Shown: in pieces, positions 1 through 49,879 of the stretch
Numbering within the stretch: the first letter of the stretch is position 1
Layout: each line of letters starts with the position of its first letter
NCBI GenBank assembly: GCA_964605155.1
Contig: CAZSAK010000004.1
Coordinates: 8,538 to 72,537, forward strand
DNA: 64,000 nucleotides
Direction: 5' to 3'
Origin: an uncultured Chromatiaceae bacterium
GTDB taxonomy: Bacteria; Pseudomonadota; Gammaproteobacteria; SZUA-140
Notes under the pieces: model-generated
Told to the model about the DNA's origin: nothing
Seen by the model: only the letters and a program-made list of their open reading frames with translations
Databases searched by the model: none
Position numbers and translations under genes: made by a program

Positions 1-366
1 GTATTGTTGGTTCGCCTGAGGAGGGCCTGTATTCTGGCCAGTAATTCGGAAAATGCGAAGGGCTTGGTCAGGTAATCATCACCGCCGATCTTGAAACCTT
101 TGACACGGTCGTCCACGCTTCTTTTTGCGCTCAATATCAATACAGGCAAGCTGATGCCATGTTTTCTCAGATCATCGATAACTGACAGGCCGTCACAACC
201 CGGCAGCATGATGTCGATTATTGCCGCGTCGAAAGGGTTACTGAGCGCCTTCTTGAGCCCGATGTCACCGTTTTCACAGTGTTCTACGCTGAAATCTTCC
301 TCCTCCATTCCTTGACGGATGAGGTGCGCAATCTTGACGTCATCTTCAATCAGCAGAATATTCACG
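1..366 (-). CDS. OmpR/PhoB-type response regulator, receiver domain (partial; gene runs off window start)
   Basis: Minus-strand translation from GTG at 366: MNILLIEDDVKIAHLIRQGMEEEDFSVEHCENGDIGLKKALSNPFDAAIIDIMLPGCDGLSVIDDLRKH..SAKRSVDDRVKGFKIGGDDYLTKPFAFSELLARIQALLRRT. Has the DD pair, phospho-Asp, and the T and K (LTKPF) of a canonical REC fold with an OmpR-type linker. The overlapping + ORF 91..315 is judged spurious. Confidence 0.8.
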
Positions 367-550: not shown

Positions 551-1291
551 CTATTCCTGGGTAGCCAGGCCGTGTTTGGCCAGTATGCCGCGCTTTTTGA
601 GGATATAAATCACAATAAAAGCGATAGTGGCGATGATAAACGCACACCCGATAAACACGAAATTATACATCGTATCTGCATAAGCCGGTAGTGACAGCCT
701 CTCATACACCAGGATACCGAGAATGGTGACGACAGTTGCATAGGCAGTGCTGTAATCCTTGAGCAATACCCGTGTCCAGGAAAATCTGTAGTCAGCCAGT
801 TTGTCGCGGACCCCGTTGAGCCTGAACGTCCAGCGGGGAACGTTATCGCAATAAGCCTGGTATTCGGCGCCGAATTTATTGCGCAGAAATGATTCTTCTG
901 CCGTGACAATCGCCTTGTAGGAGAGCAAGGCAACAGCAAACCCGATAAGGTAGGTCCATGGATTGTGGAATATGACCAGAAATCCAATTACCATCAATAT
1001 GTTTCCAACATAGAGCGGATTACGGCACAGGGAAAAAATACCTTCCGTAACCAGATTATCAGCGTACACCTTTTTGTTTACGCCGCCACGGCGGATATAG
1101 ACATAACCGATGACCAGAGCGCGCAGCGCCAGACCAGCCAGCATGATCACAGCACCGATGATATCGAAGATGATATCGCCTGTTACGTCACCCAGGGCCA
1201 GATGTGGCCTGAAGAAAACGATAAGCAGGATAATGATGACGGGGAAAAGGGCGTTACGATACCTAAACAGGAAGTGTCCAAGTTTTTCCAT
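551..1291 (-). CDS. Isoprenylcysteine carboxyl methyltransferase (ICMT/PEMT-like) family integral membrane methyltransferase
   Basis: 246 aa with multiple TM segments. C-terminal region NLVTEGIFSLCRNPLYVGNIL..FLRNKFGAEY resembles the ICMT/phospholipid-methyltransferase signature. Lies 18 bp downstream of cmoA on the same strand. Confidence 0.7.
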   Translation of the reverse strand: MEKLGHFLFRYRNALFPVIIILLIVFFRPHLALGDVTGDIIFDIIGAVIMLAGLALRALVIGYVYIRRGGVNKKVYADNLVTEGIFSLCRNPLYVGNILMVIGFLVIFHNPWTYLIGFAVALLSYKAIVTAEESFLRNKFGAEYQAYCDNVPRWTFRLNGVRDKLADYRFSWTRVLLKDYSTAYATVVTILGILVYERLSLPAYADTMYNFVFIGCAFIIATIAFIVIYILKKRGILAKHGLATQE

Positions 1292-1308
1292 GATTATTCT
1301 GAATTAGT

Positions 1309-2067
1309 TTACTTAAGCGCGATAATCCCGCAGAAGTTGTACCACCTGAAGAATATCTCAATATGCCGAAATCCGGCCCATTTCAACAAATCCCGGTTTT
1401 CTTCCCATTGATAGGGTATCAGGACATTTTCCAGCGCCTCACGCTTCTGTGCTATTTCAAGTTCCGAATAACCGTTACGTCGCTTCATCTCATAATAATA
1501 TTTTATAAACAGGCGATTGATCAGGCCGTCACTGGCAGTCAGTTTCTCAACCAGGATGATACAGCTGTTGGGGCGCATGCCCTCATAGATATTTTTGACA
1601 ACGCGTTCACGATAGAGCGGACGCATAAACTGCAGCATTAGTATCATGATGACAACGGATGCATTATCAACAACCTTGTCGTGATGTAAATCTGCCTGTA
1701 TAAGATCATAAGGCCGGGTAATTCCGGTATCCTGGAGTTTCAGGCGGGCTTTTTTCAGCATTTCTGCGGAATTGTCGATGCCTACGAAGCGGGTCCCCGG
1801 GTTGATGTATTTATCAAGTTCAACCAGTGTAGTGCCCGTCGAACAACCCAGATCGAAAAGATTACTGTCCTCTGTGGCAAAATCCGCTGCTATCTCGCAG
1901 GCCATCCTCTGGATCTCGTCATAGAAGGGGACCGAGCGGCTGACCATGTCATCGAAAACGGTTGCCGTGGCCTCGTCGAACTTGAAATCCATTTCCGGAC
2001 CGGAGCGATCGAAGAGCTGATCTTTCTGTTTGACCTTGTTGTCCTTGATGATCCTGTTTGTAGCCAT
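1309..2067 (-). CDS. cmoA: Carboxy-S-adenosyl-L-methionine synthase CmoA
   Basis: FDEATATVFDDMVSRSVPFYDEIQRM, DLGCSTG, RRNGYSELEIAQKREALENVL and FRWYNFCGIIALK align along the full length with E. coli CmoA. Confidence 0.85.
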   Translation of the reverse strand: MATNRIIKDNKVKQKDQLFDRSGPEMDFKFDEATATVFDDMVSRSVPFYDEIQRMACEIAADFATEDSNLFDLGCSTGTTLVELDKYINPGTRFVGIDNSAEMLKKARLKLQDTGITRPYDLIQADLHHDKVVDNASVVIMILMLQFMRPLYRERVVKNIYEGMRPNSCIILVEKLTASDGLINRLFIKYYYEMKRRNGYSELEIAQKREALENVLIPYQWEENRDLLKWAGFRHIEIFFRWYNFCGIIALK

Positions 2068-2216
2068 TTCTTGCAGCTTATCCGGCTTGATTACAGAGTG
2101 TGAATAAGACTTTAGCGGCCTTCATGTCAGTCAAATCTGGAAATTTTTGCCCTAGGATCATAATATTAATTTATAGTATAGATTATTACCGATTGATCAT
2201 CCAGAGGACGGGTATA

Positions 2217-2231
2217 TTCTATAATATAGAA
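2217..2231. promoter_or_regulatory. Perfect 15-bp palindrome TTCTATAATATAGAA in the divergent cmoA / hap-family intergenic region (candidate operator overlapping a TATAAT)
   Basis: Read directly from the sequence: TTCTATA-A-TATAGAA. It is about 150 bp from each flanking start codon. Confidence 0.3.
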
Positions 2232-2379
2232 CAAGTTGACGTCCTCACCGGTGTTCTAGTACCTTCCAGTCCCTTGTGCAGAAAAAAACGCTTTAAATAT
2301 TAAGTATAACGGCAAGCTGCAAGGTATGGATGATAAATCGGTGCTGGTGTCGGGATCAATTAAGCGATGAGGTTGAAGA

Positions 2380-2877
2380 ATGGATGAATATTGTGTGGTT
2401 GTAACAGATGGTACCCGAGCGAGGTTTTTTACCCTTGAGGCTGCGGATCTTCCCGGGGTGGAATCGGGCCCGAATCTCGTTGAGAGGGAGGATCTGATCA
2501 ATACTGAAGCCGAGATGCCGGGCCGCGAACTCTGGACGGACCCCAAATCAGGCCGCAATACGACCTCTTCGAGCGGCATGACACATGGTTATGATGATCA
2601 TCGTGATAAACACGATGATGAAATCGTACGACGTTTTGCTGCACAGGTAACCGGTGAGGCCATGCGACTGGTTCAACAGCATCACGCAAGACAGCTGGTG
2701 CTGGTATCCGCCAAGCGTATGCTGGGTTTTTTGCGGGATTCGCTGGTCATACCACCCAAGGCCAATTTAACAGTGCATGAATTGGCAAAAGACCTGACGC
2801 ACCTGAGTCTGCGGGATTTGCACGCTCACCTTGACAATGCCGGTCTGTTGCCAAAACGCAGGCAGGCATCCCTCTAG
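2380..2877 (+). CDS. Host-attachment protein (Hap, COG5622-like) family protein
   Basis: 165 aa; N-terminal VVVTDGTRARFF motif and overall size fit the Hap family. Weak recognition only. Confidence 0.45.
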   Translation: MDEYCVVVTDGTRARFFTLEAADLPGVESGPNLVEREDLINTEAEMPGRELWTDPKSGRNTTSSSGMTHGYDDHRDKHDDEIVRRFAAQVTGEAMRLVQQHHARQLVLVSAKRMLGFLRDSLVIPPKANLTVHELAKDLTHLSLRDLHAHLDNAGLLPKRRQASL

Positions 2878-2906: not shown

Positions 2907-2980
2907 TGGAGCGGGTGATGGGAATCGAACCCACGTTATCAGCTTGGGAAGCTGAAGTTCTACCATTGAACTACACCCGC
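2907..2980 (-). tRNA. tRNA-Gly (anticodon CCC)
   Basis: Minus strand reads GCGGGTGTAGTTCAATGGTAGAACTTCAGCTTCCCAAGCTGATAACGTGGGTTCGATTCCCATCACCCGCTCCA. Cloverleaf with a TTCCCAA anticodon loop, T-loop GGTTCGATTCC, and a CCA end. Near-identical to E. coli tRNA-Gly(CCC). Confidence 0.9.
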
Positions 2981-19566: not shown

Positions 19567-21816
19567 TTGAATATCCCAGATCAGGCATATAACACACCTT
19601 ACCTTCCTACCGATTTAATACAACCGGCGTTCTCTATCAATGACCTGTGCGAGATGCTCGCAAGCTATCTCGAACCGCAGCAGATTGCCGAGATAGAGCG
19701 TGCCTACTCCTTCGGAGCCGAGGCGCATGAGGGGCAGCACCGTCTTTCCGGCGAATCCTATATCAACCATCCACTGGCAGTGGCAAGAATACTTGCCGAA
19801 ATGCATATGGATACAGAGAGTATCATTGCCGCTTTGTTACACGATGTTATCGAAGACACGCCGACTGCGAAGGAACAGATAGTGGAGCATTTCGGCACCG
19901 AAGTTGCCGAACTGGTCGACGGTGTGAGCAAACTGGCCCAGATCAAGTTCGAGAACCGGATCGAAGCGCAGGCGAAAAATTTTCGCAAGATGTTGCTGGC
20001 GATGGTTCAGGATATCCGGGTGATGATTATCAAACTCGCCGACCGCTTGCATAACATGCGCACCCTGAGCGTCATGCCGCCATACAAGCGCAGAAGAATC
20101 TCACGGGAGACACTGGAGATATACGCACCGATTGCCAATCGACTCGGCATGAATATGGTCCGTACCGAACTGCAGGAACTCGGATTTGCCGAATCATACC
20201 CGATGCGCTATCGAATCCTGAGTGAGGCCGTAAAAAAGGTGCGGGGAAATCGCAAGGAAGTCGTCAATAACATCAGGATCGCAATTGAACAACGTTTACA
20301 ACAGGAAGGACTCAACGGCAAGGTTCATGGCAGGGAAAAACATCTTTACAGCATTTATCAAAAGATGCGCAGCAAGAAACTGTCGTTTTCCGAAGTATTT
20401 GATGTTTATGCATTCCGGATAATCGTCGATTCGGTTGATACCTGTTACCGGGTGCTCGGTGCCATACATAACCTTTACAAGCCGGTGCCGGGTAAATTCA
20501 AGGATTATATCGCCATTCCGAAAACCAATGGTTATCAGTCGCTACACACAGTTTTGTTTGGCCCTTACGGAGTACCTATCGAAGTACAGGTACGTACCGG
20601 GGACATGGATAAGGTTGGTGAAGCTGGCGTTGCGGCCCACTGGCTGTATAAGCTGGGTGACAGCAGCGAGAGTTCGAAAAGCAGCGCCCAGGTTCGTGTG
20701 CGTGAATGGATGCGCGGACTGCTCGAGATGCAAAAGAATTCCGGCGATTCGCTGGAGTTTCTCGAAAACGTCAAGATCGACCTGTTTCCCGAAGCGGTCT
20801 ACGTATTCACCCCGAAGGGCAGGATCCTGGAGCTGCCGCGTAATGCTACTGCAGTTGATTTCGCCTATGCCGTCCATACCGACGTGGGAAACTCCTGTGT
20901 AGCAGCCAAGATCGACCGCCGCCTGGCACCGCTCAGTACACCGCTATTGAGCGGTCAATCCATTGAAATTATCACCTCTACAAACGCACGTCCGAATCCC
21001 GCATGGCTGAATTTTGTCGTTACGGGCAAGGCACGCACCACCATCCGTCACTATCTGAAGAATCTCCGCCAGGAGGAATCGTTGACCCTTGGCAAGCGTA
21101 TGCTGGAGCAGGCATTGAACGTATACTCGCTTGCCGTCAGTGATTTGCCTTATGAGGTCATCAATAATCTTCTGAAAGAGTATCACTGTCTTTCGTTGGA
21201 TCAATTGTATGAAGAGATCGGGCTTGGCAATCGTCTCGCTCCACTGGTTGCCAAGCGCCTGGCCGAATCCCCGTCGGGCAGGGATCGGAAGGCTAGACGC
21301 AAGTCTCATGCCATCACCAGTGTCCTGACGCGCTATATGCCTACCTGGCTGGGTGGAGACAGATCCACTCCACGTCCCCTGGCTATTAAAGGGACCGAGG
21401 GGATGGTGGTGACTTATGCCAAATGTTGTCACCCGATTCCGGGTGACCCTATTCAGGGATTTATTTCCACCGGCCGCGGGATCGTTATTCATACCGAATC
21501 ATGTAAAAATGTTGCGGATTTCCGCAACCGACCGGAAAAATGGATCGAAGTCGAATGGGAACCGGACGTCAAAGGTGAGTACTATGTCGAGATCCGCGTT
21601 GATGTGGTTAACCGCCGGGGTGTCCTGGCTACAATCGCCGCCACCATCTCATTGATGGATTCCAACATCAACAATGTGAATATCGAGGCGCGCGACGGGA
21701 AATACAGTTCAATCAATTTTGTTATCGGGGTACATGACCGTGTGCATCTCGCCAAAGTCATGCGCCGCATACGATCGCTGGATATGGTGTCACGCATTAT
21801 ACGCGTCAAGGGATGA
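19567..21816 (+). CDS. spoT: Bifunctional (p)ppGpp synthetase/hydrolase SpoT
   Basis: HD domain (HRLSGESYINHPLAVARILAEMHMD...LHDVIEDT), synthetase domain, TGS and ACT domains. Colinear with E. coli SpoT. The ATG start leaves about 15 extra N-terminal residues relative to E. coli, so the true start may be slightly downstream. Confidence 0.9.
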   Translation: MNIPDQAYNTPYLPTDLIQPAFSINDLCEMLASYLEPQQIAEIERAYSFGAEAHEGQHRLSGESYINHPLAVARILAEMHMDTESIIAALLHDVIEDTPTAKEQIVEHFGTEVAELVDGVSKLAQIKFENRIEAQAKNFRKMLLAMVQDIRVMIIKLADRLHNMRTLSVMPPYKRRRISRETLEIYAPIANRLGMNMVRTELQELGFAESYPMRYRILSEAVKKVRGNRKEVVNNIRIAIEQRLQQEGLNGKVHGREKHLYSIYQKMRSKKLSFSEVFDVYAFRIIVDSVDTCYRVLGAIHNLYKPVPGKFKDYIAIPKTNGYQSLHTVLFGPYGVPIEVQVRTGDMDKVGEAGVAAHWLYKLGDSSESSKSSAQVRVREWMRGLLEMQKNSGDSLEFLENVKIDLFPEAVYVFTPKGRILELPRNATAVDFAYAVHTDVGNSCVAAKIDRRLAPLSTPLLSGQSIEIITSTNARPNPAWLNFVVTGKARTTIRHYLKNLRQEESLTLGKRMLEQALNVYSLAVSDLPYEVINNLLKEYHCLSLDQLYEEIGLGNRLAPLVAKRLAESPSGRDRKARRKSHAITSVLTRYMPTWLGGDRSTPRPLAIKGTEGMVVTYAKCCHPIPGDPIQGFISTGRGIVIHTESCKNVADFRNRPEKWIEVEWEPDVKGEYYVEIRVDVVNRRGVLATIAATISLMDSNINNVNIEARDGKYSSINFVIGVHDRVHLAKVMRRIRSLDMVSRIIRVKG

Positions 21817-22257: not shown

Positions 22258-22368
22258 TGAGCGGGGTATTGCGATTATTCTCGGCAAAAAATACTCGGCT
22301 ACAAGCGTGAGAAGTGCGAAATGCCGTTAAACAAGATTCGGCAGTCCGCTTCCCGGCGTCATATCGGC

Positions 22369-24522
22369 ATGACGGACAATATGTCGCCCGGAACGGGAGG
22401 GATTTCCCTGCTATCGCCCGTCCATTGTCTTGGCGGCGTAGGTAATCGTATTGCAGACCGGCTCAGCCGCCTCGGCATAGTAACGATCAAAGATCTGTTG
22501 TTTCACCTTCCGGTTCGCTACCAGGATCGCACTCGTATCCTGCCCATCGGGTCGTTGCAAATCGGCCAGGAAGCGGTCGTCGAGGGGGAGGTTTTGCTCA
22601 CCGAGGTCCGTTACGGCAGACGTCGCATGTTATTGTCCCGCATCGGCGATGGGACCGGATTTCTGACATTGCGGTTTTTTCATTTTTCCGCGACGCAAAA
22701 GAATAATCTCGCCGCTGGTTCCTGGATCAGGTGTTTTGGCGAGGTTCGCAGCAACGGCGACACTATCGAGATGATACATCCCGAATATCGCCACATCGAC
22801 AGGAATGCAGTTATAACGACCGATCAATATCTAACACCGATCTATCCTGCGACAGAAGGACTGCGTCAGCCGAGTCTGCGCATGCTGATAAAGAAGGCGC
22901 TTGATATATTGGCACGTGAATCTTCCACTGGCTATGTCAACACAGATGATAATCAGGGTGATACAAATATCATGTGTGAATGCCTGCCTGCCGAAATCCT
23001 CAAGTCACTTGCTTTGCCGCCACTGGAACAGGCGATACAGTTTGCGCACCGGCCTTCACCGCAAACTTCCATCATATCCCTGCAGGATGGTACACATCCC
23101 ATGCTGCGACGCCTGGCATTTGAGGAATTGCTGGTACAGCAGCTCAGTTGCAAACAATTACGACAAAAGATGCGGCGCTTGTCGGCACCGAGAATCGCTG
23201 TTCAAGGCAGATTAATGAAAAGGTTTCTTGGCCGGTTGCCTTTTTCACTGACCGGTGCACAAAACAGGGTGATCAAGGAAATCATAAAAGATCTTGACAG
23301 GCAGCATCCTATGCAGCGGCTCGCGCAGGGAGATGTGGGTTCCGGTAAGACAGTTGTTGCCGCGGCAACGATCCTGCATGCCGTTGAAGCGGGTTATCAA
23401 GCTGCAATAATGGCTCCAACGGAATTGCTGGCCGAGCAGCACCATGAAAATTTTATCAACTGGTTGCGTCCGCTTGATGTTGAGGTTGCATGGTTGTCCG
23501 GAAAATCAAAGGGAAAAACCAGAAGTAATATCCTCGAGCGCATAGAGACCGGAAAGGCGGCTGTTGTAGTCGGTACCCACGCCCTGATCCAGGATGATGT
23601 CGTTTTCAACAAGCTGGGTTATGTCATCATCGATGAACAACACAGGTTCGGTGTCCATCAGCGGCTGAAATTACGTGAAAAGGGTCAGCAACAGGGCCAT
23701 TATCCACATCAGCTTACCATGACCGCCACGCCGATACCGCGTACTCTGGCGATGACGGCCTACGCCGATCTGGATATCTCTGTGATTGACGAATTGCCGC
23801 CCGGTAGACAACCCGTCACTACGGTGATAATACCGGATGCGCGACGCGACGAAGTATTACAACGGGTAAAACAGGTATGCTCGAAAGGACGACAATGTTA
23901 CTGGGTTTGTACGCTGATAGAGGAGTCCGAGTCGTTGCAATGCCAGGCTGCAATCGATACAGTTGAACAACTGCGCCGGGATTTCCCCGGACTTGATATC
24001 GGCTTGCTTCACGGGCGAATCAAGGCGCGGGATAAAGAACAGATAATGGCAGCTTTCAAGGCGGGCAAAATCGATATGCTTGTCGCAACCACCGTGGTTG
24101 AGGTCGGAGTGGATGTGCCTTCTGCCAGTTTGATGGTTATAGAAAATGCAGAGCGACTCGGTATGGCGCAATTGCACCAACTTCGCGGCAGGATCGGGCG
24201 AGGCAGTGATAGAAGCAGTTGTGTTTTAATGTATCATCCCCCGTTGTCCGGACATGCAAAGGCAAGGCTCGCCACCTTGCGCGATACATCCGACGGTTTT
24301 GTCATCGCGCGTCGTGACATGGAATTACGCGGTCCTGGTGAGATACTGGGGACTCGCCAAACCGGGATGCTGCAGTTGCGCGTGGCCGATCTGTTGCGTG
24401 ACCAGGACCTGATACCACAGGTCAGCCGCACGGCCGATATGTTGCTGGAAAGGTATCCCCGCAAGGCAGGCCTGATCGTGCGTCGTTGGCTGGGAGATGC
24501 TGCACAATACGGCAGTGTATAG
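22369..24522 (+). CDS. recG: ATP-dependent DNA helicase RecG
   Basis: Wedge domain, Walker A GDVGSGKT, DEQH, and a TRG motif. Colinear with E. coli RecG. The ORF opens at 22321, and homology starts near MTDNMSPG (22369), so the start is uncertain by about 16 codons. Confidence 0.9.
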   Translation: MTDNMSPGTGGISLLSPVHCLGGVGNRIADRLSRLGIVTIKDLLFHLPVRYQDRTRILPIGSLQIGQEAVVEGEVLLTEVRYGRRRMLLSRIGDGTGFLTLRFFHFSATQKNNLAAGSWIRCFGEVRSNGDTIEMIHPEYRHIDRNAVITTDQYLTPIYPATEGLRQPSLRMLIKKALDILARESSTGYVNTDDNQGDTNIMCECLPAEILKSLALPPLEQAIQFAHRPSPQTSIISLQDGTHPMLRRLAFEELLVQQLSCKQLRQKMRRLSAPRIAVQGRLMKRFLGRLPFSLTGAQNRVIKEIIKDLDRQHPMQRLAQGDVGSGKTVVAAATILHAVEAGYQAAIMAPTELLAEQHHENFINWLRPLDVEVAWLSGKSKGKTRSNILERIETGKAAVVVGTHALIQDDVVFNKLGYVIIDEQHRFGVHQRLKLREKGQQQGHYPHQLTMTATPIPRTLAMTAYADLDISVIDELPPGRQPVTTVIIPDARRDEVLQRVKQVCSKGRQCYWVCTLIEESESLQCQAAIDTVEQLRRDFPGLDIGLLHGRIKARDKEQIMAAFKAGKIDMLVATTVVEVGVDVPSASLMVIENAERLGMAQLHQLRGRIGRGSDRSSCVLMYHPPLSGHAKARLATLRDTSDGFVIARRDMELRGPGEILGTRQTGMLQLRVADLLRDQDLIPQVSRTADMLLERYPRKAGLIVRRWLGDAAQYGSV

Positions 24523-30961: not shown

Positions 30962-32503
30962 ATGAAACAGACAATTCAACTTCGCCTGGGTCAGAATCTG
31001 ACCATGACACCGCAACTGCAACAGGCGATTCGCCTGTTGCAACTGTCCACCCTCGATTTACAGGCGGAAATACAACAGGCGCTGGATTCAAACCCGATGC
31101 TGGAACAGGCCGAGGAGGATCATAATGACGGTATCGCGGCGGAAGGGGACTGGGATTCCGAAGGGCAACATACGCAAAAGGATGCACTCAATGATACCAA
31201 AGGGGATGCGTCATCATTAAACAACGAAATAACCCAGCAGGATTTACATAATACTAATCAGGATGAGATTCGCCTGCCGGATTCCGAGCTACAGGCGGAC
31301 ATACCTGATGAATTACCCGTCGATAGTGCCTGGGAGGATAGCTATGATATACCCGTCACCACGACCTCGGGAGTTCAGCCGGAATTCAGGGGAAATGAAG
31401 GACAGGATAATTCATCGGAAACCTTGCGTGAACATCTACTGTGGCAAATGCGTTTATCCAAATTCTCCGAAAAGGATACCGAGATTGCCACGACAATCAT
31501 CGACGCGATAAACGAGCATGGATATCTGACAGCCGCTTTTGATGAGCTCATCGAGAGTATCAGCGATGATTATGAGGTGGATCCGGATGAGGTCGAGGCC
31601 GTTCTTCATCGTATACAAAACTTTGATCCGGTAGGGGTCGGAGCACGCGATCTGCGTGAATGCCTGCTGATTCAATTGCAGCAACTAGAGAGCGAGACGC
31701 CGTGTCTGGAAGGTGCCAGGAAGCTGGTTGCAGATCATCTGCAATTGCTGGCGAACCGCGATTATACCCAGCTGATGCGGCGCATGAAAATCTCTCAGGA
31801 TGATTTGCGCCAGATGATAAGTCTGGTGCAGTCACTGAATCCGAGGCCTGGGAGCCTTATTTCCAGCAAGACGGCCGAATATATCGTGCCCGATGTCATC
31901 GTCAAAAAGGAAAAGGATGCCTGGAAAGTCGAACTCAATTCCGAGGCGATACCAAGAATCCGGATAAATCTGCAATATGCATCTCTCGTAAAACGTGCCG
32001 ATAACAGTAGTGACAACACCTATCTAAGGAACCATCTGCAAGAGGCTCGCTGGTTTATCAAGAGCCTTAAAAGCCGCAATGAAACCCTGCTCAAGGTTGC
32101 ATCATGTATCGTTGAGCGCCAGCGCGATTTTCTCGAGTATGGTGAGGAAGCGATGAAAGCTCTGGTGTTACATGATGTAGCAGAGGTGGTGGATATGCAT
32201 GAATCGACCATCTCGCGCGTTACCACACAGAAATACATGCACACGCCGCGTGGTATATTCGAGCTTAAATATTTCTTTTCCAGCCATGTCAGTACCGAGG
32301 ACGGGGGAGAGTGCTCGGCAACAGCAATAAGGGCACTATTGAAAAAGCTGATCGCTGCGGAAGATCCGTGTAAACCTCTCAGTGACAGTAAACTTGCGCA
32401 GATATTATCAGAACAGGGTATAAAAGTTGCACGCAGAACAATAGCAAAATATCGGGAATCAATCACAATCCCTTCATCAAACGAACGTAAAAGACTGGCA
32501 TAG
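30962..32503 (+). CDS. rpoN: RNA polymerase sigma-54 factor
   Basis: Region [34 protein letters not shown], an acidic region II, the RpoN box ARRTIAKYR, and an HTH. Confidence 0.95.
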
Positions 32504-35962: not shown

Positions 35963-37705
35963 ATGGGTTTGGTGCTGAGCGGCATAAGTATTTCACGGGG
36001 GATTGCCATCGGTCAGGCATATCTTCTGGAACACGATGATCTTGAGATCAGTGAATACAGCATCCCGCAGCACCTCATCAAGCATGAAATTACCCGCTTT
36101 AAAACTGCTGTGGAAAAGGCAAGACAACAATTACACGATATTCGTAACCGGATACCGATCAACACCCCCACGGAGATTACCGCCTTTATCGATGCCCATT
36201 TGCTGATGCTTGAGGATGCCGCTCTTTCAGAGGCTCCCAAAAATATTATCAAAACCAGACAGTGTAATGCTGAATGGGCAATGAAACTGCAACGGGATGC
36301 CCTTGTCAGCGTTTTTGATGCCATGGATGACGCCTACCTGCGTACCCGCAAGGATGATGTTGATCATGTAGTTAAACGCATTCAATCCTATCTGATCAAT
36401 CAAGACGGCCAGTCTCACAATGCCCCGGAGGGGTGGCTGAAGAACAGCATAGTCGTCGCCGAGGATCTCTCACCTGCAGAAATGATGATGTTGCAACATC
36501 AGGGTGTAGCCGCATTTGTAACGGAATACGGCGGGCCGAATTCTCATACGGCAATACTTGCGCGCAGTCTGGGGATACCGGCCGTGGTTGGCATACATCA
36601 TATCCGCGGTTATCTTGTCCAGAATGAGATCCTGGTCCTCGACGGCCAGAGAGGTGTCGTGCTGGCGAACCCTGATCCACAGGAACTCGAGTATTTCCGC
36701 TCCCTGCAACGTACTGAAAGACTCCGGCATGCCGGACTCAAGAAACTGAAACAGCAACCCGCTGTTACCAGTGATGGCCAACAGGTCTCGTTGCTTGCCA
36801 ACGCTGAGTTACCCGAGGACATACCGGCAATCAAGCGCGCCGCCGCCGCCGGAATCGGACTGTATCGCACTGAAATGCTGTTTATGAGCCATGATTCATT
36901 ACCTGATGAGGAAGAACAATACCGGACTTATCTGAAAATAGTGCGCGCCATGAAGGGCGCACCGGTTACCATACGCACTATAGACATTGGTGCGGATAAA
37001 CAGGCCCAAGGCAGACGGCAATCCGGCTCAATGGCAACCAACCCGGCTTTGGGACTGCGCGCGATCAGATGGTGTCTGAAAGATCCCGCGCAGTTTATAC
37101 CGCAAATCCGCGCGATACTCAGGGTCTCGGCACATGGCCCGGTAAAGATGATGATCCCGATGTTGTCCACTATACAGGAATTGACCCAGGTATTGCGTAT
37201 TGTGGAACAGGAAAAAGCATCCATGCAAAAGCATGGTATTCGCTTCGATAAAAAGATTCCGATCGGAGGAATGGTGGAGATACCTGCCGCCGCTTTGGCG
37301 GCCAGTGCCTTTGCCCGGCATCTTGATTTTCTCTCTATAGGTACCAATGACCTGATTCAATACACTCTGGCGGTGGATCGTCTCGATGAAGAGGTCAATT
37401 ATCTTTATAATCCCCTCCATCCGGCAATCCTGCAATTGATCAATATGACGATGGTCGCGGGCAAAAAGGCCAATATTCCAGTTACGATGTGCGGTGAAAT
37501 GGCCGGTGATACGCTTTATACCCGATTGCTGCTGGGCATGGGATTGAGGGAGTTCAGCATGCTGTCTGGTTCACTGCTGGAGGTAAAGCGTATCATAATT
37601 AGCAGTGATGCCTCTGTCTTGTCTAGACGTGTTCGAAAGGTTATGAAGATGTCCAACCCGGTGGAGATATTGGAGTTCGTAGAGAAAATCAACGCCGCCG
37701 ATTGA
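35963..37705 (+). CDS. ptsI: Phosphoenolpyruvate-protein phosphotransferase (Enzyme I)
   Basis: 580 aa. N-terminal HPr-binding region, phospho-His region GGPNSHTAILARSLGIP, and a PEP-utilising TIM barrel. No GAF domain, so it is PtsI-like rather than PtsP. Confidence 0.85.
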   Translation: MGLVLSGISISRGIAIGQAYLLEHDDLEISEYSIPQHLIKHEITRFKTAVEKARQQLHDIRNRIPINTPTEITAFIDAHLLMLEDAALSEAPKNIIKTRQCNAEWAMKLQRDALVSVFDAMDDAYLRTRKDDVDHVVKRIQSYLINQDGQSHNAPEGWLKNSIVVAEDLSPAEMMMLQHQGVAAFVTEYGGPNSHTAILARSLGIPAVVGIHHIRGYLVQNEILVLDGQRGVVLANPDPQELEYFRSLQRTERLRHAGLKKLKQQPAVTSDGQQVSLLANAELPEDIPAIKRAAAAGIGLYRTEMLFMSHDSLPDEEEQYRTYLKIVRAMKGAPVTIRTIDIGADKQAQGRRQSGSMATNPALGLRAIRWCLKDPAQFIPQIRAILRVSAHGPVKMMIPMLSTIQELTQVLRIVEQEKASMQKHGIRFDKKIPIGGMVEIPAAALAASAFARHLDFLSIGTNDLIQYTLAVDRLDEEVNYLYNPLHPAILQLINMTMVAGKKANIPVTMCGEMAGDTLYTRLLLGMGLREFSMLSGSLLEVKRIIISSDASVLSRRVRKVMKMSNPVEILEFVEKINAAD

Positions 37706-37861: not shown

Positions 37862-39238
37862 TTGCAGGGCAGGGCCATGCCGGATAATAACAACGATAAA
37901 GAAAAACATCAGCAAAGACTGCAGCGCTTTACGGCAGCGCTCGAGAGCGGCACCCTGGTCAATGTCCGTAATATGCTCAACAGCCTGCATCCGGCTGAAA
38001 TCGCCCATTTACTGGAATCATTGCCTCCGGACGAACGTGAGTTGGTATGGGAACTTGTCGACCCGGAACTTGATGGCGATACCCTGCTGCATGTTAATGA
38101 TGAACTCAGAGCCAGTCTTATACGTGACATGCTGCCTCATGAACTGGTTGCGGCTGCAGAAGGCATGGACACCGATGACCTGGCCGATATCCTCCAGGAC
38201 CTCCCCGATGCTGTAATTCAGGAAGTGTTGCAGTCGATGTCGGTTCAGGACAGACATCGGCTGGAGGCGGTTTTATCCTACGCGGAGGATACCGCCGGTG
38301 GTCTGATGAATACCGATACCATTACGGTACGGCCTGATGTGACCGTGGATGTTGTCTTGCGCTATCTGAGGTTGCGCGGCAAGATTCCGGAAACAACGGA
38401 TAATCTGTTCGTGGTCAATAGAGATGATTATTATCTCGGGGCCCTTTCATTGACATCCTTACTGACCAGTTCACCGACATCGCCCGTATCGGAACTGATG
38501 TCAAAAGACATCGAGGGTATACCTGCGATGATGTCGGCCGATGAAGTCGCTAATATCTTCGAGCATCGTGATCTGGTAACGGCGCCGGTTGTCGATGGGG
38601 ATAAGCGGCTGTTGGGACGTATCACCATCGATGACGTAGTGGATGTTATTCGGGAAAAATCAGATCATTCACTGATGAGCCTCGCCGGTCTTGATGAAGA
38701 AGATGATATGTTCGCCCCGGTTTTCATCAGTGCTCGCCATCGTGCCGTATGGCTGGGCGCCAATCTGACAACGGCATTCCTGGCATCCTGGGTAATCGGC
38801 TTGTTTGAAGCCACAATCGACAAGGTTGTGGCATTGGCGGTATTGATGCCCATTGTTGCAAGTATGGGTGGTATCGCCGGGAGCCAGACCCTGACACTGG
38901 TAATACGTGGAATCGCACTTGGTAAGATTGGTGATTCGAATGCCCGTTATCTGTTGATCAAGGAACTGGCGGTCGCTTTAATTAATGGCCTGTTATGGGC
39001 TTTGGTGGTCGCGGCTATAGCGGTGCTGTGGTTTGATAACTATCAAATCGGCTGGATAATCGCAGCGGCTATCGTTATTAACCTTGTGATTGCCGCGTTA
39101 ACCGGCGTGCTAATCCCGATCATATTGCGTAAACTGGGAGCTGATCCTGCCTTGGGAGGGAGCGTATTGCTGACCACTGTGACGGATGTAGTCGGTTTTA
39201 TGGTATTCCTCGGCCTGGCGACTATATTCCTCATCTAG
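37862..39238 (+). CDS. mgtE: Magnesium transporter MgtE
   Basis: MgtE N-domain, tandem CBS domains, and a C-terminal 5-TM pore domain (MPIVASMGGIAGSQ). An alternative start at MPDNNND (37877) is possible. Confidence 0.9.
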   Translation: MQGRAMPDNNNDKEKHQQRLQRFTAALESGTLVNVRNMLNSLHPAEIAHLLESLPPDERELVWELVDPELDGDTLLHVNDELRASLIRDMLPHELVAAAEGMDTDDLADILQDLPDAVIQEVLQSMSVQDRHRLEAVLSYAEDTAGGLMNTDTITVRPDVTVDVVLRYLRLRGKIPETTDNLFVVNRDDYYLGALSLTSLLTSSPTSPVSELMSKDIEGIPAMMSADEVANIFEHRDLVTAPVVDGDKRLLGRITIDDVVDVIREKSDHSLMSLAGLDEEDDMFAPVFISARHRAVWLGANLTTAFLASWVIGLFEATIDKVVALAVLMPIVASMGGIAGSQTLTLVIRGIALGKIGDSNARYLLIKELAVALINGLLWALVVAAIAVLWFDNYQIGWIIAAAIVINLVIAALTGVLIPIILRKLGADPALGGSVLLTTVTDVVGFMVFLGLATIFLI

Positions 39239-39278: not shown

Positions 39279-41243
39279 TTAAGTTTTTATCCTGTCCACC
39301 AACAGATTACCGTATCCATCAAGCCGGCACTTCCACCCTGCAGCGATATAGGTGGTCGAGATTGCCTCGGTGATCAGGGCCGGGCCCGTGATGAGCTGTT
39401 TCTGTTGCAGATAACCACGTTTGTATACCCGGGTATAACCTTCGACATCATACAGCCTAACCTTGTCAGGCGTCTGGTCATTGCCGGTTATCTTTGATAC
39501 AGATGTCATCCTGATACTGGTCTCGGGTCCACTGATACCCGTCCTGATATTCACCAACTCGATCGGCAGGTCGAGACGATGGCCATAACGTGCATGATGG
39601 GCCTGGTGGAAGGCGTATTCACAGTGCTCAATTTCCTGCCACGGTATGTTCAAGGTGTAGGATTGACCATGGTATCTCAAGTCCAGGGAACGTTGCGCGG
39701 TGATATTTTCCTCTGCAATCCCTTCCGCCATCAACGCTTGGCGTCCTTCATCTTCCAGCACATCAAATCTTGATGCCAGTTGGCTGGTGGTAAATTCACC
39801 AAGCAATCCACCTAATGTATGGGACAATTGTCTTGCCCGCGGTGCGACAAGCATACCAAGCGCCGATAACACGCCGCCGTGAATAGGCACAATGGCATGT
39901 CGTATCCCCAGTGTCTCGGCGAGTTCACACAGGTGCAACCCGCCCGCGCCACCGAATGATACCAGAGTGAAATCCTTTGGATCATACCCACGCTGCACCG
40001 ATATGACCCGCAATGCCTGAGCCATATGCGTATTGACGAGTCGCAGGATTCCCATGGCAGCCTCCTCGGATGTGACGCCGATTTTCATGGCCACCGTTTT
40101 CATCACCCGCTGCGCCGCGGCAATGTCCAGTGTCATATGTCCGCCCAGAAAGGCATCGGCCCGGAGACGTCCGATTACCAGATGGGCATCGGTAACCGTA
40201 GCATATTCACCGCCACGTCCATAACAGGCAGGACCAGGATCAGCCCCCGCCGATTGTGGACCGACCTGAAGGATATTGCCGCTATCGACAGTAGCTATCG
40301 ATCCTCCGCCGGCACCGATTGTATGCAGATCCACCATGGGTATTGCCACGGGATAATGACCGATACGTCCCTCATTGGTCAGCCGCAGATCGCCATCGAT
40401 CATGGCGACATCTGTTGAGGTACCGCCCATATCCAGCGTCAACAGACGGTGACGGCCTGCACTATCGGCGATATATCTTGCGCCGGCCAGACCGCCGGCG
40501 GGGCCTGAAAGCAGCATGTGTACGGCCATCCTGCTGGCATGGCCGGTTGCCATGGTTCCACCCGAACTTTGCATAACGGATATACTGGCATTGTCCAGCT
40601 CACTTGACAGATTTTTCAGATATCCTTCCACTATCGGACCGACCCAGGCATTTAGCCAGGTGGTTATGCCACGTTCGTATTCCTTGTACTCCCTCAGGAC
40701 CGCCGATGACCGCGAGACAAAGATTCCGTCAGGTACAATCGCTTCTATGTTCTTTTCAAAGCGATCATCGAGAAACGAGAATAGTAGATTAATGGCGATC
40801 GAGTTCGGTGCCAAAGCCTGTATTTGTGTTTTCAGTTTTTCAAGTGCTGCTTCAGTGATTGGTTCGATAACTGTCCCGTCGGCCGCCAGACGGCCTGTAG
40901 TTTCAAGGCACAATTCCCGTGGTACGGGCGGCGTAAAGGGTTTCGGTTGCAAGTTGTATAATTCATGCCGCGCCTGACGACCGATGGTGAGCATATCCCC
41001 GAATCCGTGGTTGGTTATAAACACCGTGCGTACTCCCTTGCCTTCAAGTACAGCATTGGTGGCGACCGTCGAGCCGTGGATGATGGAGAGTGGCAACCTT
41101 TCCAGTCCCAGCTCATGGATGCCTTGTATGATGGCATGCTCGGGGGCATGTGGCGTCGACAAGACCTTGTGGATCCTGAATCCGGAACCATCGAAAAGCA
41201 CGAAGTCGGTAAAGGTACCTCCGGTATCTATGCCAAGCAGCAT
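39279..41243 (-). CDS. Hydantoinase/oxoprolinase A-subunit family protein (HyuA-like), no adjacent B subunit
   Basis: 654 aa. N-terminal MLLGIDTGGTFTDFVLFDG (hydantoinase N domain) followed by a hydantoinase_A domain. Confidence 0.8.
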   Translation of the reverse strand: MLLGIDTGGTFTDFVLFDGSGFRIHKVLSTPHAPEHAIIQGIHELGLERLPLSIIHGSTVATNAVLEGKGVRTVFITNHGFGDMLTIGRQARHELYNLQPKPFTPPVPRELCLETTGRLAADGTVIEPITEAALEKLKTQIQALAPNSIAINLLFSFLDDRFEKNIEAIVPDGIFVSRSSAVLREYKEYERGITTWLNAWVGPIVEGYLKNLSSELDNASISVMQSSGGTMATGHASRMAVHMLLSGPAGGLAGARYIADSAGRHRLLTLDMGGTSTDVAMIDGDLRLTNEGRIGHYPVAIPMVDLHTIGAGGGSIATVDSGNILQVGPQSAGADPGPACYGRGGEYATVTDAHLVIGRLRADAFLGGHMTLDIAAAQRVMKTVAMKIGVTSEEAAMGILRLVNTHMAQALRVISVQRGYDPKDFTLVSFGGAGGLHLCELAETLGIRHAIVPIHGGVLSALGMLVAPRARQLSHTLGGLLGEFTTSQLASRFDVLEDEGRQALMAEGIAEENITAQRSLDLRYHGQSYTLNIPWQEIEHCEYAFHQAHHARYGHRLDLPIELVNIRTGISGPETSIRMTSVSKITGNDQTPDKVRLYDVEGYTRVYKRGYLQQKQLITGPALITEAISTTYIAAGWKCRLDGYGNLLVDRIKT

Positions 41244-45412: not shown

Positions 45413-47086
45413 TTATCGTACCACGGCCAGACCGATCCCGCGTGGGTCGCTGGCCGCCTTGACCTCGTTGCGGGCGCGATCCCATAGCACCGCCTGCATA
45501 TTGCCGTAATTGCGGCCACTTTGTTTGAGGTTATGACCGAGGGCCCGCAATTCGGCCACTTCATCCAGGCTAAAGGTTCCAGGTTCATAGCTGACGAAGT
45601 CTGGCATGTATTGATGATGGAATCGTTTCACGCTGACCCAGGAAGCCGGTCCGTTGCCCTTGGCATAATCAAGCACTCCCAGTAAAACCATGGTGATGAT
45701 CCTGCTCCCACCGGGTGTCCCGAGGATAGCGACCCGTTCACCGTCATCAAGGAAGGTTGGGGTCATGCTTGATAGCGGGCGTTTGCCCGGAGCAATGGCG
45801 TTGGCCTGGGCTCCGATCAAACCGTACACATTCGGTACGCCGGGCTTGGCGGAAAAATCATCCATCTCGTCGTTGAGCAGGACTCCAGTCCCGTATGGCA
45901 TAAAACCGGATCCGAAGGGAAAGTTGATGGTCAGTGTTGCAGCTACACGATTGCCCTGTTTATCGAGTACAGAGAAATGTGTCGTATGGTTTGCCTCCTC
46001 GTCTGCAGGCAAACCGGGCAGCGTGTTGCTGGGCGTTGCCCTGTCTATCCTGATCGAGGCGGCCAGGCCGGCGGCGTAATAGGGATTGGTCAGGCGATCA
46101 ACCGGAATATCGACATAATCCGGATCACCGAGATATTCTGCGCGGTCGCGATAGGCACGGCGCATGGCCTCGATGATGAGATGGGTTTGTGAAACAGGTT
46201 TCAGTTGATGGAGCTGATAACCATCCAGGATATTCAGCATGGTCAGCAGGGCTACGCCACCTGACGAAGGCGGTGCAGCGGAGGTGACCTGGATATTCTT
46301 GTATTTACCCCTTATCGGTTGACGTTCAAGGACATGATATTCGGCCAGATCCTGCAGTGACCAGATACCGCCGGCATCGCGGGTGGCCGCCACCAGTTGT
46401 TTGGCGATATCGCCTCGATAAAAGGCATTCTTGCCTTCTCGCGTGATCGCTTCCAATGTTCGTGCAAGATCCGGTTGCTTGATGACGAAACCGGGCGGCG
46501 GTACGTCGTTGTCATGCAGGAATACTTGGGCCGCAGCCGGTGATTTACGCAGGACTTCAAGGCGGAACGACGCCAGCCTGCGGTAGCGTTCATCGACGGT
46601 AAAACCTTCACGAGCCAGGCGGATGGCCGGTGCAAGGGATTTTGATAGCGGCAGGCGGCCGTACTTCTCTGCCAGGTGATCAATCGCAGCGACCGTGCCG
46701 GGTATCCCCGCCGCCAATGGTCCATCGATCGAGAGCCTTGGGATGACCTTGCCTTCCTGATCGAGATACATATTGTTGCGGGCGGCAAGCGGCGCCCTTT
46801 CACGACCGTCAAGCATGATATCGAGATGGTCGTCTTCGCGGTGCAACAGCCAGAAGCCGCCGCCGCCCAGTCCCGAACTCGCCGGTTCGGCAACGGCCAG
46901 TGCTGCTGTGATCGCAACTGCGGCATCAAATGCGTTGCCGCCGGATTCCAGGACTTCAAGCCCGGCTTGTGTTGCCAGTGGATGGGCACTGGCTACTGCC
47001 ACTGCAGGCGGTTCAGCGGCATCCAGCGGGTTCAGCCAGAGCAGCGCGATAACACAGATTATCGATAACAGACTGAATCTACTCAA
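45413..47086 (-). CDS. ggt: Gamma-glutamyltranspeptidase
   Basis: Signal peptide; the autoproteolytic-site region; C-terminal TPGGSRIITMVL motif; length 557 aa. Confidence 0.9.
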   Translation of the reverse strand: MSRFSLLSIICVIALLWLNPLDAAEPPAVAVASAHPLATQAGLEVLESGGNAFDAAVAITAALAVAEPASSGLGGGGFWLLHREDDHLDIMLDGRERAPLAARNNMYLDQEGKVIPRLSIDGPLAAGIPGTVAAIDHLAEKYGRLPLSKSLAPAIRLAREGFTVDERYRRLASFRLEVLRKSPAAAQVFLHDNDVPPPGFVIKQPDLARTLEAITREGKNAFYRGDIAKQLVAATRDAGGIWSLQDLAEYHVLERQPIRGKYKNIQVTSAAPPSSGGVALLTMLNILDGYQLHQLKPVSQTHLIIEAMRRAYRDRAEYLGDPDYVDIPVDRLTNPYYAAGLAASIRIDRATPSNTLPGLPADEEANHTTHFSVLDKQGNRVAATLTINFPFGSGFMPYGTGVLLNDEMDDFSAKPGVPNVYGLIGAQANAIAPGKRPLSSMTPTFLDDGERVAILGTPGGSRIITMVLLGVLDYAKGNGPASWVSVKRFHHQYMPDFVSYEPGTFSLDEVAELRALGHNLKQSGRNYGNMQAVLWDRARNEVKAASDPRGIGLAVVR

Positions 47087-48535: not shown

Positions 48536-49879
48536 TCAGGGAGTCGTGCCAGGTCCTACGGTCACGGTCACCATCTTGTCCGGATGGACACGCCTGTCGA
48601 AGGCATCCTCGATTTGCTTGACGGTTACCGCATCGACATGATCGTTGAAGGTATCTAGAAAATCGAGTGGCAAATTATAGAATCCGATGGAAGATAGATT
48701 ATCCACTATCTTGCCGTTGCTGGAGATACGCAATGGGAATCCGCCGGTAATATTCTGTTTGGATGCCTTGAGTTCCTTTTCCGTGGGGCCATCGTCGATG
48801 AAGTCCCGCAGGGTATCACGCAGGACACCGATGGCCTCTTGCGTTTGTTCATTGCGCGTCTGCAGACCAAGTGTATACGGTCCCTTGTAGCGCATGGGTG
48901 TAAAATAACTGTAGGCGCTGTATGAAAGGCCGCGTTTTTCGCGGACTTCTTCACTGATGCGCGATACCAGGCCGCTTCCACCGAGGATGTGATTGCCAAC
49001 ATAGAGAGGGAAATAATCCGGATCATCGCGGGTCATCCCCGGCTGTCCGATCAGGACGTGGGTCTGAGTTGAGGGAAAATCTATATGAATGGTAGCGGCC
49101 TCTGTCAGTGGTTCCACCTTGTGTAGCGGCGGAGGTGTTTTCCCAGCCGGCAATCCTGATACCAGGGTATCGACAAGCGCCTCGGCACCGGCACGGTCCA
49201 GCGCGCCGACAACGGCCACAACCGCATTTCGCGCCACATAAAAGCGTTTATGAAAGTCGATCGCATCGTCACGGTCAAGTTCAATCAGTGAGTCTTCTGT
49301 ACCGAGTATCGGAGAGGCATATGGATGGGCGTTGTATAAGGCCTTGTAAAAGGCCTTGCTGGCGATGGCGCCGGGTGATTGCTGTTCGGCCTGCAGGGAG
49401 ATCAGCATCTGGTTGCGCACCCTATCGAAACTGTCCTGGGGAAAGGTGGGATCGCGCAGAATAAGCGCATAGGTTTCCAGAGCGGGCTTCAGCAACTTGG
49501 GATCGGTAAGGCTGCGCAGACTGGTTACAGCCATGTCGCGATGCGAACTTGTGCCGAATTGTGCGCCGAGATTTTCAAAACGCTCTGCTATCTCATCCGC
49601 ATTGAGATCACCGGCGCCTTCGTCAAGCATGCTGTTGGTCAGTTGGGCGATCCCTTCCTTGTCACCATCGCGAGAACCTCCGGCATCAAATATGATCTGC
49701 ACATCGACCATGGGTAGTTCTGGTGCCGGGACAAAGTAGACCCGTGCGCCGTTAGCGGTGGTCCAATGCTGGATGGCGGGGGCAGCGTACGAAGTTACGG
49801 GTAAAATCGATAGACAGATGACTGCAAGCAACAGGGAGAACGAATAGAGTTTGTTCGATGGAATATGAGGAGATTTCAT
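48536..49879 (-). CDS. M16 family peptidase, inactive (non-catalytic) subunit
   Basis: Signal peptide (from MKSPHIP...). M16 fold without the HxxEH zinc motif. Paired with the upstream catalytic M16 gene. The ORF opens at 49978. Confidence 0.75.
   Translation of the reverse strand: MKSPHIPSNKLYSFSLLLAVICLSILPVTSYAAPAIQHWTTANGARVYFVPAPELPMVDVQIIFDAGGSRDGDKEGIAQLTNSMLDEGAGDLNADEIAERFENLGAQFGTSSHRDMAVTSLRSLTDPKLLKPALETYALILRDPTFPQDSFDRVRNQMLISLQAEQQSPGAIASKAFYKALYNAHPYASPILGTEDSLIELDRDDAIDFHKRFYVARNAVVAVVGALDRAGAEALVDTLVSGLPAGKTPPPLHKVEPLTEAATIHIDFPSTQTHVLIGQPGMTRDDPDYFPLYVGNHILGGSGLVSRISEEVREKRGLSYSAYSYFTPMRYKGPYTLGLQTRNEQTQEAIGVLRDTLRDFIDDGPTEKELKASKQNITGGFPLRISSNGKIVDNLSSIGFYNLPLDFLDTFNDHVDAVTVKQIEDAFDRRVHPDKMVTVTVGPGTTP

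Follow-up and report, generated by a model that had tools for sequence, protein, structure and literature searches.

A cmoA-like gene is paired with a gene for an ICMT-fold membrane protein in many bacterial phyla and may form a carboxymethylation cassette

A cmoA-like gene followed by a gene for a membrane protein

The window analyzed here is the whole 64-kb stretch (64,000 nucleotides) of contig CAZSAK010000004.1 from an uncultured Chromatiaceae bacterium. Near its left end, a gene similar to cmoA, which in E. coli encodes the enzyme that makes carboxy-S-adenosylmethionine (Cx-SAM), is followed by a gene for an integral membrane protein of the ICMT/PEMT fold. The two genes are arranged head to tail on the minus strand, with the cmoA-like gene upstream and the ICMT-like gene downstream. 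An earlier note on this DNA had described the pair correctly, apart from the strand and two other small details given below. The locus comprises the following features:

1309..2067, minus strand: cmoA-like gene, 252 amino acids; predicted carboxy-SAM synthase of a distinct ICMT-linked subclade
551..1291, minus strand: gene for an ICMT/PEMT-fold integral membrane protein, 246 amino acids; predicted Cx-SAM-dependent carboxymethyltransferase
1292..1308, minus strand: spacer of 17 nucleotides from the stop codon (TAA) of the cmoA-like gene to the ATG of the ICMT-like gene, read directly from the sequence
2068..2379, minus strand: AT-rich intergenic sequence 5' of both the cmoA-like gene and the divergent gene at 2380..2877; putative promoter region
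1..365, minus strand: 5' part of an OmpR-type response-regulator gene, truncated by the window edge; the encoded sequence matches the response regulator found on contig L001

Co-transcription of the two genes is probable, as the earlier note had proposed. They are separated by 17 nucleotides (one less than had been stated), no terminator-like site is predicted between them on the minus strand, and the gap is similarly short in the 79 related pairs introduced below (median 23 nucleotides, with overlaps of four nucleotides in ten loci). Scans of the window for promoters and terminators yielded only consensus matches, about as often as expected from background. One of them, at 2359..2330 on the minus strand, is sigma-70-like; it does no more than fit the consensus, and the region 2068..2379 contains no more such matches than shuffled sequence does.

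CmoB, the tRNA-modifying partner of CmoA in E. coli, has no relative in the 64-kb window according to a tblastn search with E. coli CmoB: the best match (E = 0.01) covers a 52-amino-acid motif for S-adenosylmethionine (SAM), and the ICMT-like gene itself gave no match at E <= 10. Together with the family assignments given below, this bears out the initial observation that cmoA is followed here by an ICMT-family membrane gene and that the window lacks cmoB.

The CmoA-like protein

The CmoA-like protein of the window scores 235.6 bits on TIGR00740, the NCBIfam equivalog model for CmoA, and passes the cut-off of 193.3. It fails the cut-off of the enterobacterial model PRK15451 (168 bits, cut-off 285) and is 36% identical to E. 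coli CmoA over the full length. The closest PDB matches are 1im8 (YecO) and 4gek/4iwn (CmoA), with E-values of 1e-46 to 2e-49. The CmoA-like proteins that accompany the membrane protein in other phyla are 47-68% identical to the window protein and 32-42% identical to E. coli CmoA, and partners from other loci reach 218-262 bits on TIGR00740. By sequence, the window protein is a member of a separate subclade, apart from the enterobacterial-type CmoA. Its nearest CmoA matches carry names that place the source probably in the Gammaproteobacteria.

To inspect the active site, 73 clade members were aligned with E. coli CmoA and H. influenzae YecO. Most residues common to the E. coli and H. influenzae proteins are kept across the 73 subclade members. 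Arg199, which in E. coli CmoA is the sole side chain that touches the carboxylate of bound Cx-SAM (PMC4482062), is kept in 99% of them, and in the window protein it lies within a QKR motif. The active site of the subclade thus appears intact, and its members are predicted to be Cx-SAM synthases; the obligatory co-substrate of CmoA is prephenate (PMC4482062, PMC10491745). Four divergent partners (from Pseudoxanthomonas, Acidovorax, and twice Massilia) score only 141-153 bits on TIGR00740, under the cut-off, and have Ser or Ala at position 199, with an arginine one residue later.

The pair is found largely in lineages without the cmo5U pathway of tRNA modification, since most carrier lineages lack both CmoA and CmoB (Sakai 2019). 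Neither protein is present in Rhizobium, Agrobacterium, Xanthomonas, Stenotrophomonas, Acidovorax, Janthinobacterium, Rhodopirellula, Opitutus, and Acidobacterium, and Ochrobactrum anthropi, Methylobacterium nodulans, Nitrosococcus oceani, Dyadobacter fermentans, and Chitinophaga pinensis are "orphan CmoA" organisms (Sakai 2019, Supplementary Data 2). Every sampled member of the Enterobacteriaceae has the canonical cmoAB (Sakai 2019, Supplementary Data 2). One Enterobacteriaceae contig carries the cmoA-ICMT pair inserted between cvrA and dadX. Its CmoA-like protein reaches 236 bits on TIGR00740 but only 177 on the enterobacterial model, which marks it, as judged from these scores, as a module-type paralogue. 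The complete E. coli genomes contain the module in no case.

On rhizobial plasmids (L092:6218-6979 and L093:6216-6977), PGAP annotates the cmoA gene of the module with GO:0006400, "tRNA modification". This label is probably wrong and carried over from other annotations, because the sampled Rhizobium genomes lack CmoB (Sakai 2019).

Conservation and mobility of the pair

To describe the distribution of the pair, GTDB was scanned, with one genome per species, using an alignment of 35 relatives of the membrane protein. This yielded at least 594 matches, the best 80 of which were kept; the species of the window is not one of these. In 79 of the 80 loci, the gene directly upstream, on the same strand, encodes a CmoA-like protein. 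The loci belong to Alpha-, Beta-, and Gammaproteobacteria (Rhizobium, Pararhizobium, Ensifer, Mycoplana, Massilia, Acidovorax, and Pseudoxanthomonas) within the Pseudomonadota, and to Verrucomicrobiota, Planctomycetota, Acidobacteriota, Nitrospirota, Armatimonadota, "Deltaproteobacteria", Binatota, and Eisenbacteria. The pairing therefore extends across at least nine phyla, with differing flanks. A relative of CmoB was found within 6 kb in none of the 80 loci. Three further relatives, picked for their long contigs (an ENA scaffold, another metagenome, and Pararhizobium sp. A13), likewise have a CmoA-like gene of 237-260 codons 11-14 nucleotides upstream, in neighborhoods that are otherwise unrelated.

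The reverse test started from an alignment of the CmoA subclade, which was searched against metagenome contigs and gave 62 loci with at least 300 nucleotides of downstream sequence. The membrane gene is located downstream in 55 of the 62, directly in 54 cases and behind a small inserted open reading frame in one. CmoB was present in none of these metagenomic loci and, overall, in none of 160 related loci. Co-inheritance of the two genes predicts that the pairwise identity matrices of the two proteins correlate, and this was observed (r = 0.65; none of 999 Mantel permutations attained this value).

The pair was likewise found on chromids and megaplasmids of rhizobia and on a plasmid of Gemmatirosa, and the module is accessory within genera. 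On a conjugative plasmid of Rhizobium sp. T1470 (L093:6216-7738), it stands alone amid group II intron maturase genes and the insertion sequences (IS) IS630 and IS21, and from this setting it looks like a mobile two-gene unit.

The adjacency of the two genes is far beyond chance, and coincidental linkage is excluded, because the pairing was found in both directions and in at least nine phyla, the flanks change, and the pair moves as a unit on plasmids. The earlier note had offered coincidence as one explanation, to be favored if a cmoB gene was found elsewhere in the genome and the linkage was not conserved in relatives. The profiling of cmoA neighborhoods that it had suggested revealed the opposite, namely that the ICMT-like partner is strongly conserved. 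A linkage without function, in which cmoA serves a cmoB elsewhere and the ICMT-like gene is an unrelated neighbor, draws some support from the scope of the cmoB search, which covered the 64-kb window. However, the counts in both directions amid unrelated flanks, the overlapping start and stop codons in ten loci, the correlated identity matrices, and domain fusions that join the membrane protein to the prephenate step (see below) all speak against it, and we regard it as the most improbable of the explanations considered here.

The only one of the best 80 membrane protein genes without an adjacent CmoA gene (L078:3866-4669) has lost Y65, R68, and G84, which are otherwise invariant. As a single case, this joint loss is suggestive. 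The gene is situated between genes for a CzcA-like RND pump, a CDF transporter, and a P-type ATPase, a metal-efflux setting, and its product may have evolved into a SAM-dependent enzyme that serves a metal-related function.

An apparent CmoA-ICMT fusion of 528 amino acids, encoded on the chromosome of a metagenome-assembled genome of Candidatus Eisenbacteria (L072:5128-6714), was rejected. The true C-terminus of CmoA and its stop codon are present in another frame, and the frameshift near the CmoA C-terminus is probably an assembly error.

The membrane protein

The membrane protein matches the Pfam families PF04191 (PEMT, 44.3 bits) and PF04140 (ICMT, 27.2 bits). On TIGR04571, the LmtA model, it reaches 102.9 bits over residues 2-199, far under the cut-off of 325; by this score it is related to LmtA, but is no LmtA equivalog. 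An AlphaFold2 model (pLDDT 89.4, pTM 0.86) has six long helices. The top Foldseek matches of the model are the ICMT structures 5v7p, 5vg9, and 4a2n, with probabilities of 0.99-1.0 and weak E-values of 0.015-0.12 (none <= 0.001); about 120 residues superpose, with TM-scores of 0.31-0.38. A profile search against the PDB found 4a2n at E = 4e-11. The modeled structure confirms a polytopic protein with the cofactor-binding core fold of ICMT.

The profile alignment to ICMT structures revealed the ICMT cofactor motifs, with RNPLY in place of RHPxY, followed by EE..L...FG..Y. Throughout the family, R90-N-P-L-Y94-V-G (in which Asn replaces His), E132-E133, F140-G141, and Y147 are invariant or nearly so. 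The ICMT signature NLVTEGIFSLCRNPLYVGNIL, which had been placed near the C-terminus, comprises residues 79-99 of 246 and is located in the middle of the protein. The invariant set of the family consists of R12, R57, Y65, I66, R68, G69, G70, R90-N-P-L-Y94, E132, E133, R153, and K178. Specific to the family are R12, the Y65-I-R-R68-G-G loop, R153, K178, and K232, and these residues are candidates for recognizing either the additional carboxylate of Cx-SAM or an acceptor of anionic character. By alignment, the counterpart of the invariant R57 in the Tribolium ICMT chain 5vg9 is Arg173, a residue that reportedly positions the substrate carboxylate. Basic residues are concentrated at the N-terminus, in the loop 64-83, and at the C-terminus. 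The positive-inside rule, applied to these clusters, suggests that the loop and the cofactor core would face the cytoplasm, the site of Cx-SAM formation.

The family is large: 162 clusters at 50% identity (E <= 1e-30) came out of an exhaustive HMMER search through 1.84 billion representative proteins. Its current label is "isoprenylcysteine carboxylmethyltransferase family protein". Other architectures occur among P0260 (507 amino acids), P0366 (357 amino acids), and P0287 (442 amino acids); two of these have tandem ICMT/PEMT domains, and one has an OmpA-like C-terminal domain behind a low-complexity linker.

Two of the functions proposed in the earlier note can be judged from these features. 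According to the first, the membrane protein is a non-orthologous replacement of CmoB and carboxymethylates ho5U34 of tRNA where cmoB is lacking. This would fit the absence of cmoB from the window and from the 160 related loci, and many carrier lineages have TrhO and lack CmoB and TrmR (Sakai 2019). Against it stand the polytopic nature of the protein, its ICMT fold, the known substrates of which are lipophilic, and the absence of an RNA-binding domain, as well as the accessory, plasmid-borne character of the module and its presence in a contig of the Enterobacteriaceae, the sampled members of which all have cmoAB. We therefore consider a role in tRNA modification very improbable. The second proposal, a novel Cx-SAM-dependent carboxymethyltransferase for a membrane or lipid substrate, is well supported by the comparative evidence, including the fusions described next.

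Fusion to a chorismate mutase-type domain

Several matches to the membrane protein exceed its length by about 100 residues, and five of them carry a C-terminal CM_2 (chorismate mutase type II) domain (PF01817; 56-66 bits, cut-off 27) behind the last membrane helix. With clustering at 90%, a further search returned 15 fusions; they have diverged to as little as 45% identity and come mainly from Phycisphaerales. Altogether, at least 18 distinct fusions of the membrane domain with CM_2 were found, chiefly in Phycisphaerales (Planctomycetota):

Fusion proteins: P0271, P0306, P0276, P0308, P0317, and P0396-P0408
Fusion loci: L174:5001-6912, L175:5001-6813, and L176:5001-6919

The JGI label of these proteins is "Ste14/chorismate mutase". 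For all three contexts examined, the fusion gene is followed by a CmoA-like gene with overlapping stop and start codons. These CmoA-like partners score 221-226 bits on TIGR00740 and keep the arginine in the motif KREALENV.

Chorismate mutase makes prephenate, and the chorismate mutase fold binds chorismate or prephenate. In all 18 fusion sequences compared, the CM_2 domain retains five residues of E. coli chorismate mutase (R11, R28, K39, D48, and R51). Beyond CmoA itself, we know of no reason, save dependence on Cx-SAM, for a prephenate-related domain on an ICMT-fold protein. The occurrence of the CM_2 fusion beside CmoA therefore ties the membrane enzyme itself to the supply of prephenate and Cx-SAM.

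This tie bears on a more conventional explanation, namely that the membrane protein uses SAM like any ordinary O- or N-methyltransferase. It could methyl-cap a carboxyl group introduced by another user of Cx-SAM, as CmoM does for cmo5U by forming a methyl ester, or it could methylate a lipid, in which case CmoA would have a different role in that pathway. The founding reaction of the ICMT family is the methylation of carboxyl groups, and the standard ICMT/PEMT cofactor motifs are kept. In addition, a second, shorter ICMT/PEMT paralogue of about 205-215 amino acids is encoded downstream of the pair in 5-6 loci (among them L016, L029, L047, L053, and L087), so that two sequential alkylations are conceivable. 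The shorter paralogue has RNPLY, but the YIRRGG loop is missing, and it could perform a second alkylation, for example methyl-esterify the new carboxylate. However, the conserved unit comprises two genes only, a recurrent third transferase is absent from the 160 loci, and the pair moves between IS elements with no companion genes. The fused domain, of a type that binds chorismate/prephenate, likewise argues for a link to Cx-SAM production. An ordinary methyltransferase is thus improbable in our view, although less so than a tRNA-modifying enzyme.

Predicted mechanism and possible acceptors

The comparative genomic evidence makes the following two-step mechanism likely, although it stays a prediction. 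The gene pair would represent a self-contained, horizontally mobile cassette that is independent of the synthesis of cmo5U in tRNA. As the first step, the CmoA-like enzyme would convert SAM and prephenate to Cx-SAM, which is suggested by its family membership and the conserved active-site residues. As the second step, the ICMT-fold enzyme, whose cofactor site would lie on the cytoplasmic side of the inner membrane, would bind Cx-SAM rather than SAM, move its carboxymethyl group (+58 Da) onto a nucleophile of an acceptor embedded in the membrane, and release S-adenosylhomocysteine. This step is suggested by the conserved linkage, the domain fusion, and the fold. Expression might be controlled by the adjacent OmpR-type two-component system.

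Neighboring genes were compared with regard to the acceptor. All-against-all clustering and a Pfam census of the neighbors identified no third universally conserved gene beside the pair, and the neighborhood outside the pair is mostly unconserved. Nevertheless, several genes recur. Within 6 kb of the pair, 15-17 of the 80 loci have a response-regulator gene and 13 have a histidine-kinase gene. At the locus of the window, a histidine-kinase gene follows next after the response-regulator gene at 1..365, beyond the window edge, and this regulator possibly regulates the cmoA-ICMT pair or is co-regulated with it. On plasmid pT173d of Ensifer canadensis, cmoA and the ICMT-like gene are followed by a response-regulator gene, a histidine-kinase gene, and then a PAP2 phosphatase gene. 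ArnT-like GT-C transferases (PMT_2, once with Arnt_C) are encoded beside the pair in 8 of 171 loci, from Phycisphaeraceae, Luteolibacter, Nitrospirales, and others, together with GT2, LAB_N, or EamA genes. Rce1-like proteins are encoded near the pair in a few loci.

The preferred acceptor, which we put forward tentatively and with less than even confidence, is lipid A or another envelope lipid. It is favored because LmtA is the closest characterized relative and because two-component, ArnT-like, and PAP2 genes recur nearby. The enzyme would alkylate a phosphate (or carboxylate) oxygen of the lipid, yielding a carboxymethyl-phosphate ester, by analogy with the methylation of the lipid A 1-phosphate by LmtA. 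With equal reserve, the cassette may be proposed to carboxymethylate a lipid A phosphate or another envelope lipid by means of the first integral-membrane Cx-SAM-dependent enzyme, present in at least nine phyla and on rhizobial plasmids, and possibly turned on through a two-component system resembling PmrAB.

Other acceptors have to be weighed, such as a small lipophilic or volatile nucleophile, for instance a thiol that would be S-carboxymethylated, or, with PEMT-like chemistry, the amine of phosphatidylethanolamine or of an ornithine lipid. The ICMT-family enzyme MddA methylates methanethiol, which is the basis of the thiol variant. The top Pfam match of the membrane protein is indeed PEMT and not ICMT, the neighborhood beyond the pair is mostly unconserved, and TglF exemplifies that Cx-SAM is able to alkylate thiols (PMC10491745). 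Yet LmtA is the best characterized match, over residues 2-199, an invariant Arg is aligned with Arg173 of Tribolium ICMT, and the pair is found beside Arn-like, PAP2, or two-component genes in several phyla. Such an acceptor, like the preferred one, is given less than even confidence.

Several observations weigh against the proposed cassette function. About 11% of the CmoA-subclade loci have no adjacent gene for the membrane partner, and the scope of the cmoB search, mentioned above, also belongs here. The choice of donor, Cx-SAM or SAM, is not readable from the sequence of the membrane protein. Envelope-lipid genes are a minority among the neighbors (PMT_2 in 8 of 171 loci, two-component systems in about one of five). 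Furthermore, E52 and Q88 of E. coli chorismate mutase are not conserved in the fused CM_2 domain, which may act by binding chorismate or prephenate, with little or no mutase activity.

Comparison with known systems

Cx-SAM is a rare cofactor with four known consumers: CmoB, TglF, MccB's C-terminal domain, and the phage enzyme CmoX. The predicted cassette resembles CmoA/CmoB, which forms cmo5U34 in E. coli tRNA, in that two cistrons encode a CmoA that makes Cx-SAM and an adjacent gene product that consumes it (a prediction for the pair studied here). The window CmoA likewise passes TIGR00740 and keeps Arg199. In contrast, the partner is a six-helix ICMT-fold membrane protein that is not homologous to CmoB. 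CmoB is a soluble Rossmann-fold enzyme with a tRNA-binding N-domain, in which Lys91, Tyr200, and Arg315 bind the carboxylate of Cx-SAM. The membrane protein thus differs from the CmoB/TglF carboxymethyltransferases in fold and lacks sequence homology to CmoB.

Cassettes for acceptors other than tRNA are known, namely TglE/TglF (3-thiaglutamate), MccS with MccB's C-terminal domain (microcin C-like compounds), and the phage cassette CmoA/CmoX, which forms 5-carboxymethylcytosine in DNA (PMC10491745, PMC12783734). Common to these and to the pair described here is a CmoA homologue beside a dedicated, in our case predicted, Cx-SAM-dependent carboxymethyltransferase. These transferases have been described as relatives of ordinary methyltransferases, TglF of CmoB, the MccB domain of a methyltransferase fold, and CmoX of C5-methyltransferases, and their acceptors are peptide, nucleotide, or DNA (PMC10491745, PMC12783734). 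The transferase of the pair, in contrast, would be an integral membrane protein of the ICMT fold with a presumably lipophilic acceptor. Hence, the logic of a synthase with a dedicated transferase is known, whereas the fold of the transferase and, presumably, the class of substrate are new.

LmtA (TIGR04571) is the best-scoring characterized family and is also a polytopic inner-membrane protein. It is reportedly the Kdo2 1-phosphate O-methyltransferase for lipid A of Leptospira and hence alkylates a lipid phosphate. However, LmtA uses SAM, and the membrane protein scores far under its cut-off. Leptospira lacks CmoA (Sakai 2019).

With ICMT/Ste14 (4a2n, 5v7p, 5vg9) and PEMT, the membrane protein shares the cofactor-binding core fold and motifs and the Arg aligned with Arg173. 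It differs from ICMT/Ste14 by RNPLY instead of RHPxY, by its own invariant YIRRGG loop, R12, and K178, and by two extra C-terminal helices. To our knowledge, prenylated protein substrates are not to be expected in the carrier bacteria.

A full-text search of the literature found no description of CmoA paired with an ICMT-family enzyme. An apparent literature link of cmoA or carboxymethyl to arsenic was rejected as a false match to cMOAT.

The known consumers act on RNA, peptide, nucleotide, or DNA; the cassette, if the prediction is true, would extend the chemistry of Cx-SAM to membranes and, should its acceptor be an envelope lipid, represent a previously undescribed class of envelope modification. 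It would predict a new modification of +58 Da on a lipid or lipophilic compound, which can readily be sought by mass spectrometry. It would also give a function to the large family of membrane proteins (the 162 clusters and at least 594 GTDB matches given above) and correct the label "tRNA modification" on the cmoA genes of the module, including those of Rhizobium, the sampled species of which lack CmoB. If lipid A is the acceptor, the modification would be relevant to how soil and rhizosphere bacteria bind cations and resist antimicrobial peptides, and to the charge of their outer membrane.

Other genes of the window and its vicinity

The remainder of the window is a normal proteobacterial chromosome segment and no island. 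The gene divergent from cmoA, at 2380..2877 on the plus strand, encodes a 165-amino-acid Host_attach/baeRF (bacterial eRF1-like) protein (PF10116, 112 bits). It is directly followed by a tRNA-Gly(CCC) gene on the opposite strand (2907..2980, minus strand). Housekeeping genes encode SpoT/RelA (19567..21816), RecG (22321..24522), RpoN (sigma-54; 30962..32503), a PtsP-like PEP-utilizing enzyme (35963..37705), and MgtE (37862..39238). Genes for a hydantoinase/oxoprolinase (39279..41243), a gamma-glutamyltranspeptidase (45413..47086), and an M16 peptidase gene pair (48536..51302), all on the minus strand, have no evident link to the cmoA-ICMT pair. Just beyond the window and the histidine-kinase gene, L001:4669-5790 encodes a 373-amino-acid seven-bladed beta-propeller protein of the lactonase family (PF10282, 239 bits). 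This gene is located on the strand opposite to the two-component genes and is followed by genes for an AsmA-family protein, MutY, and YggX.

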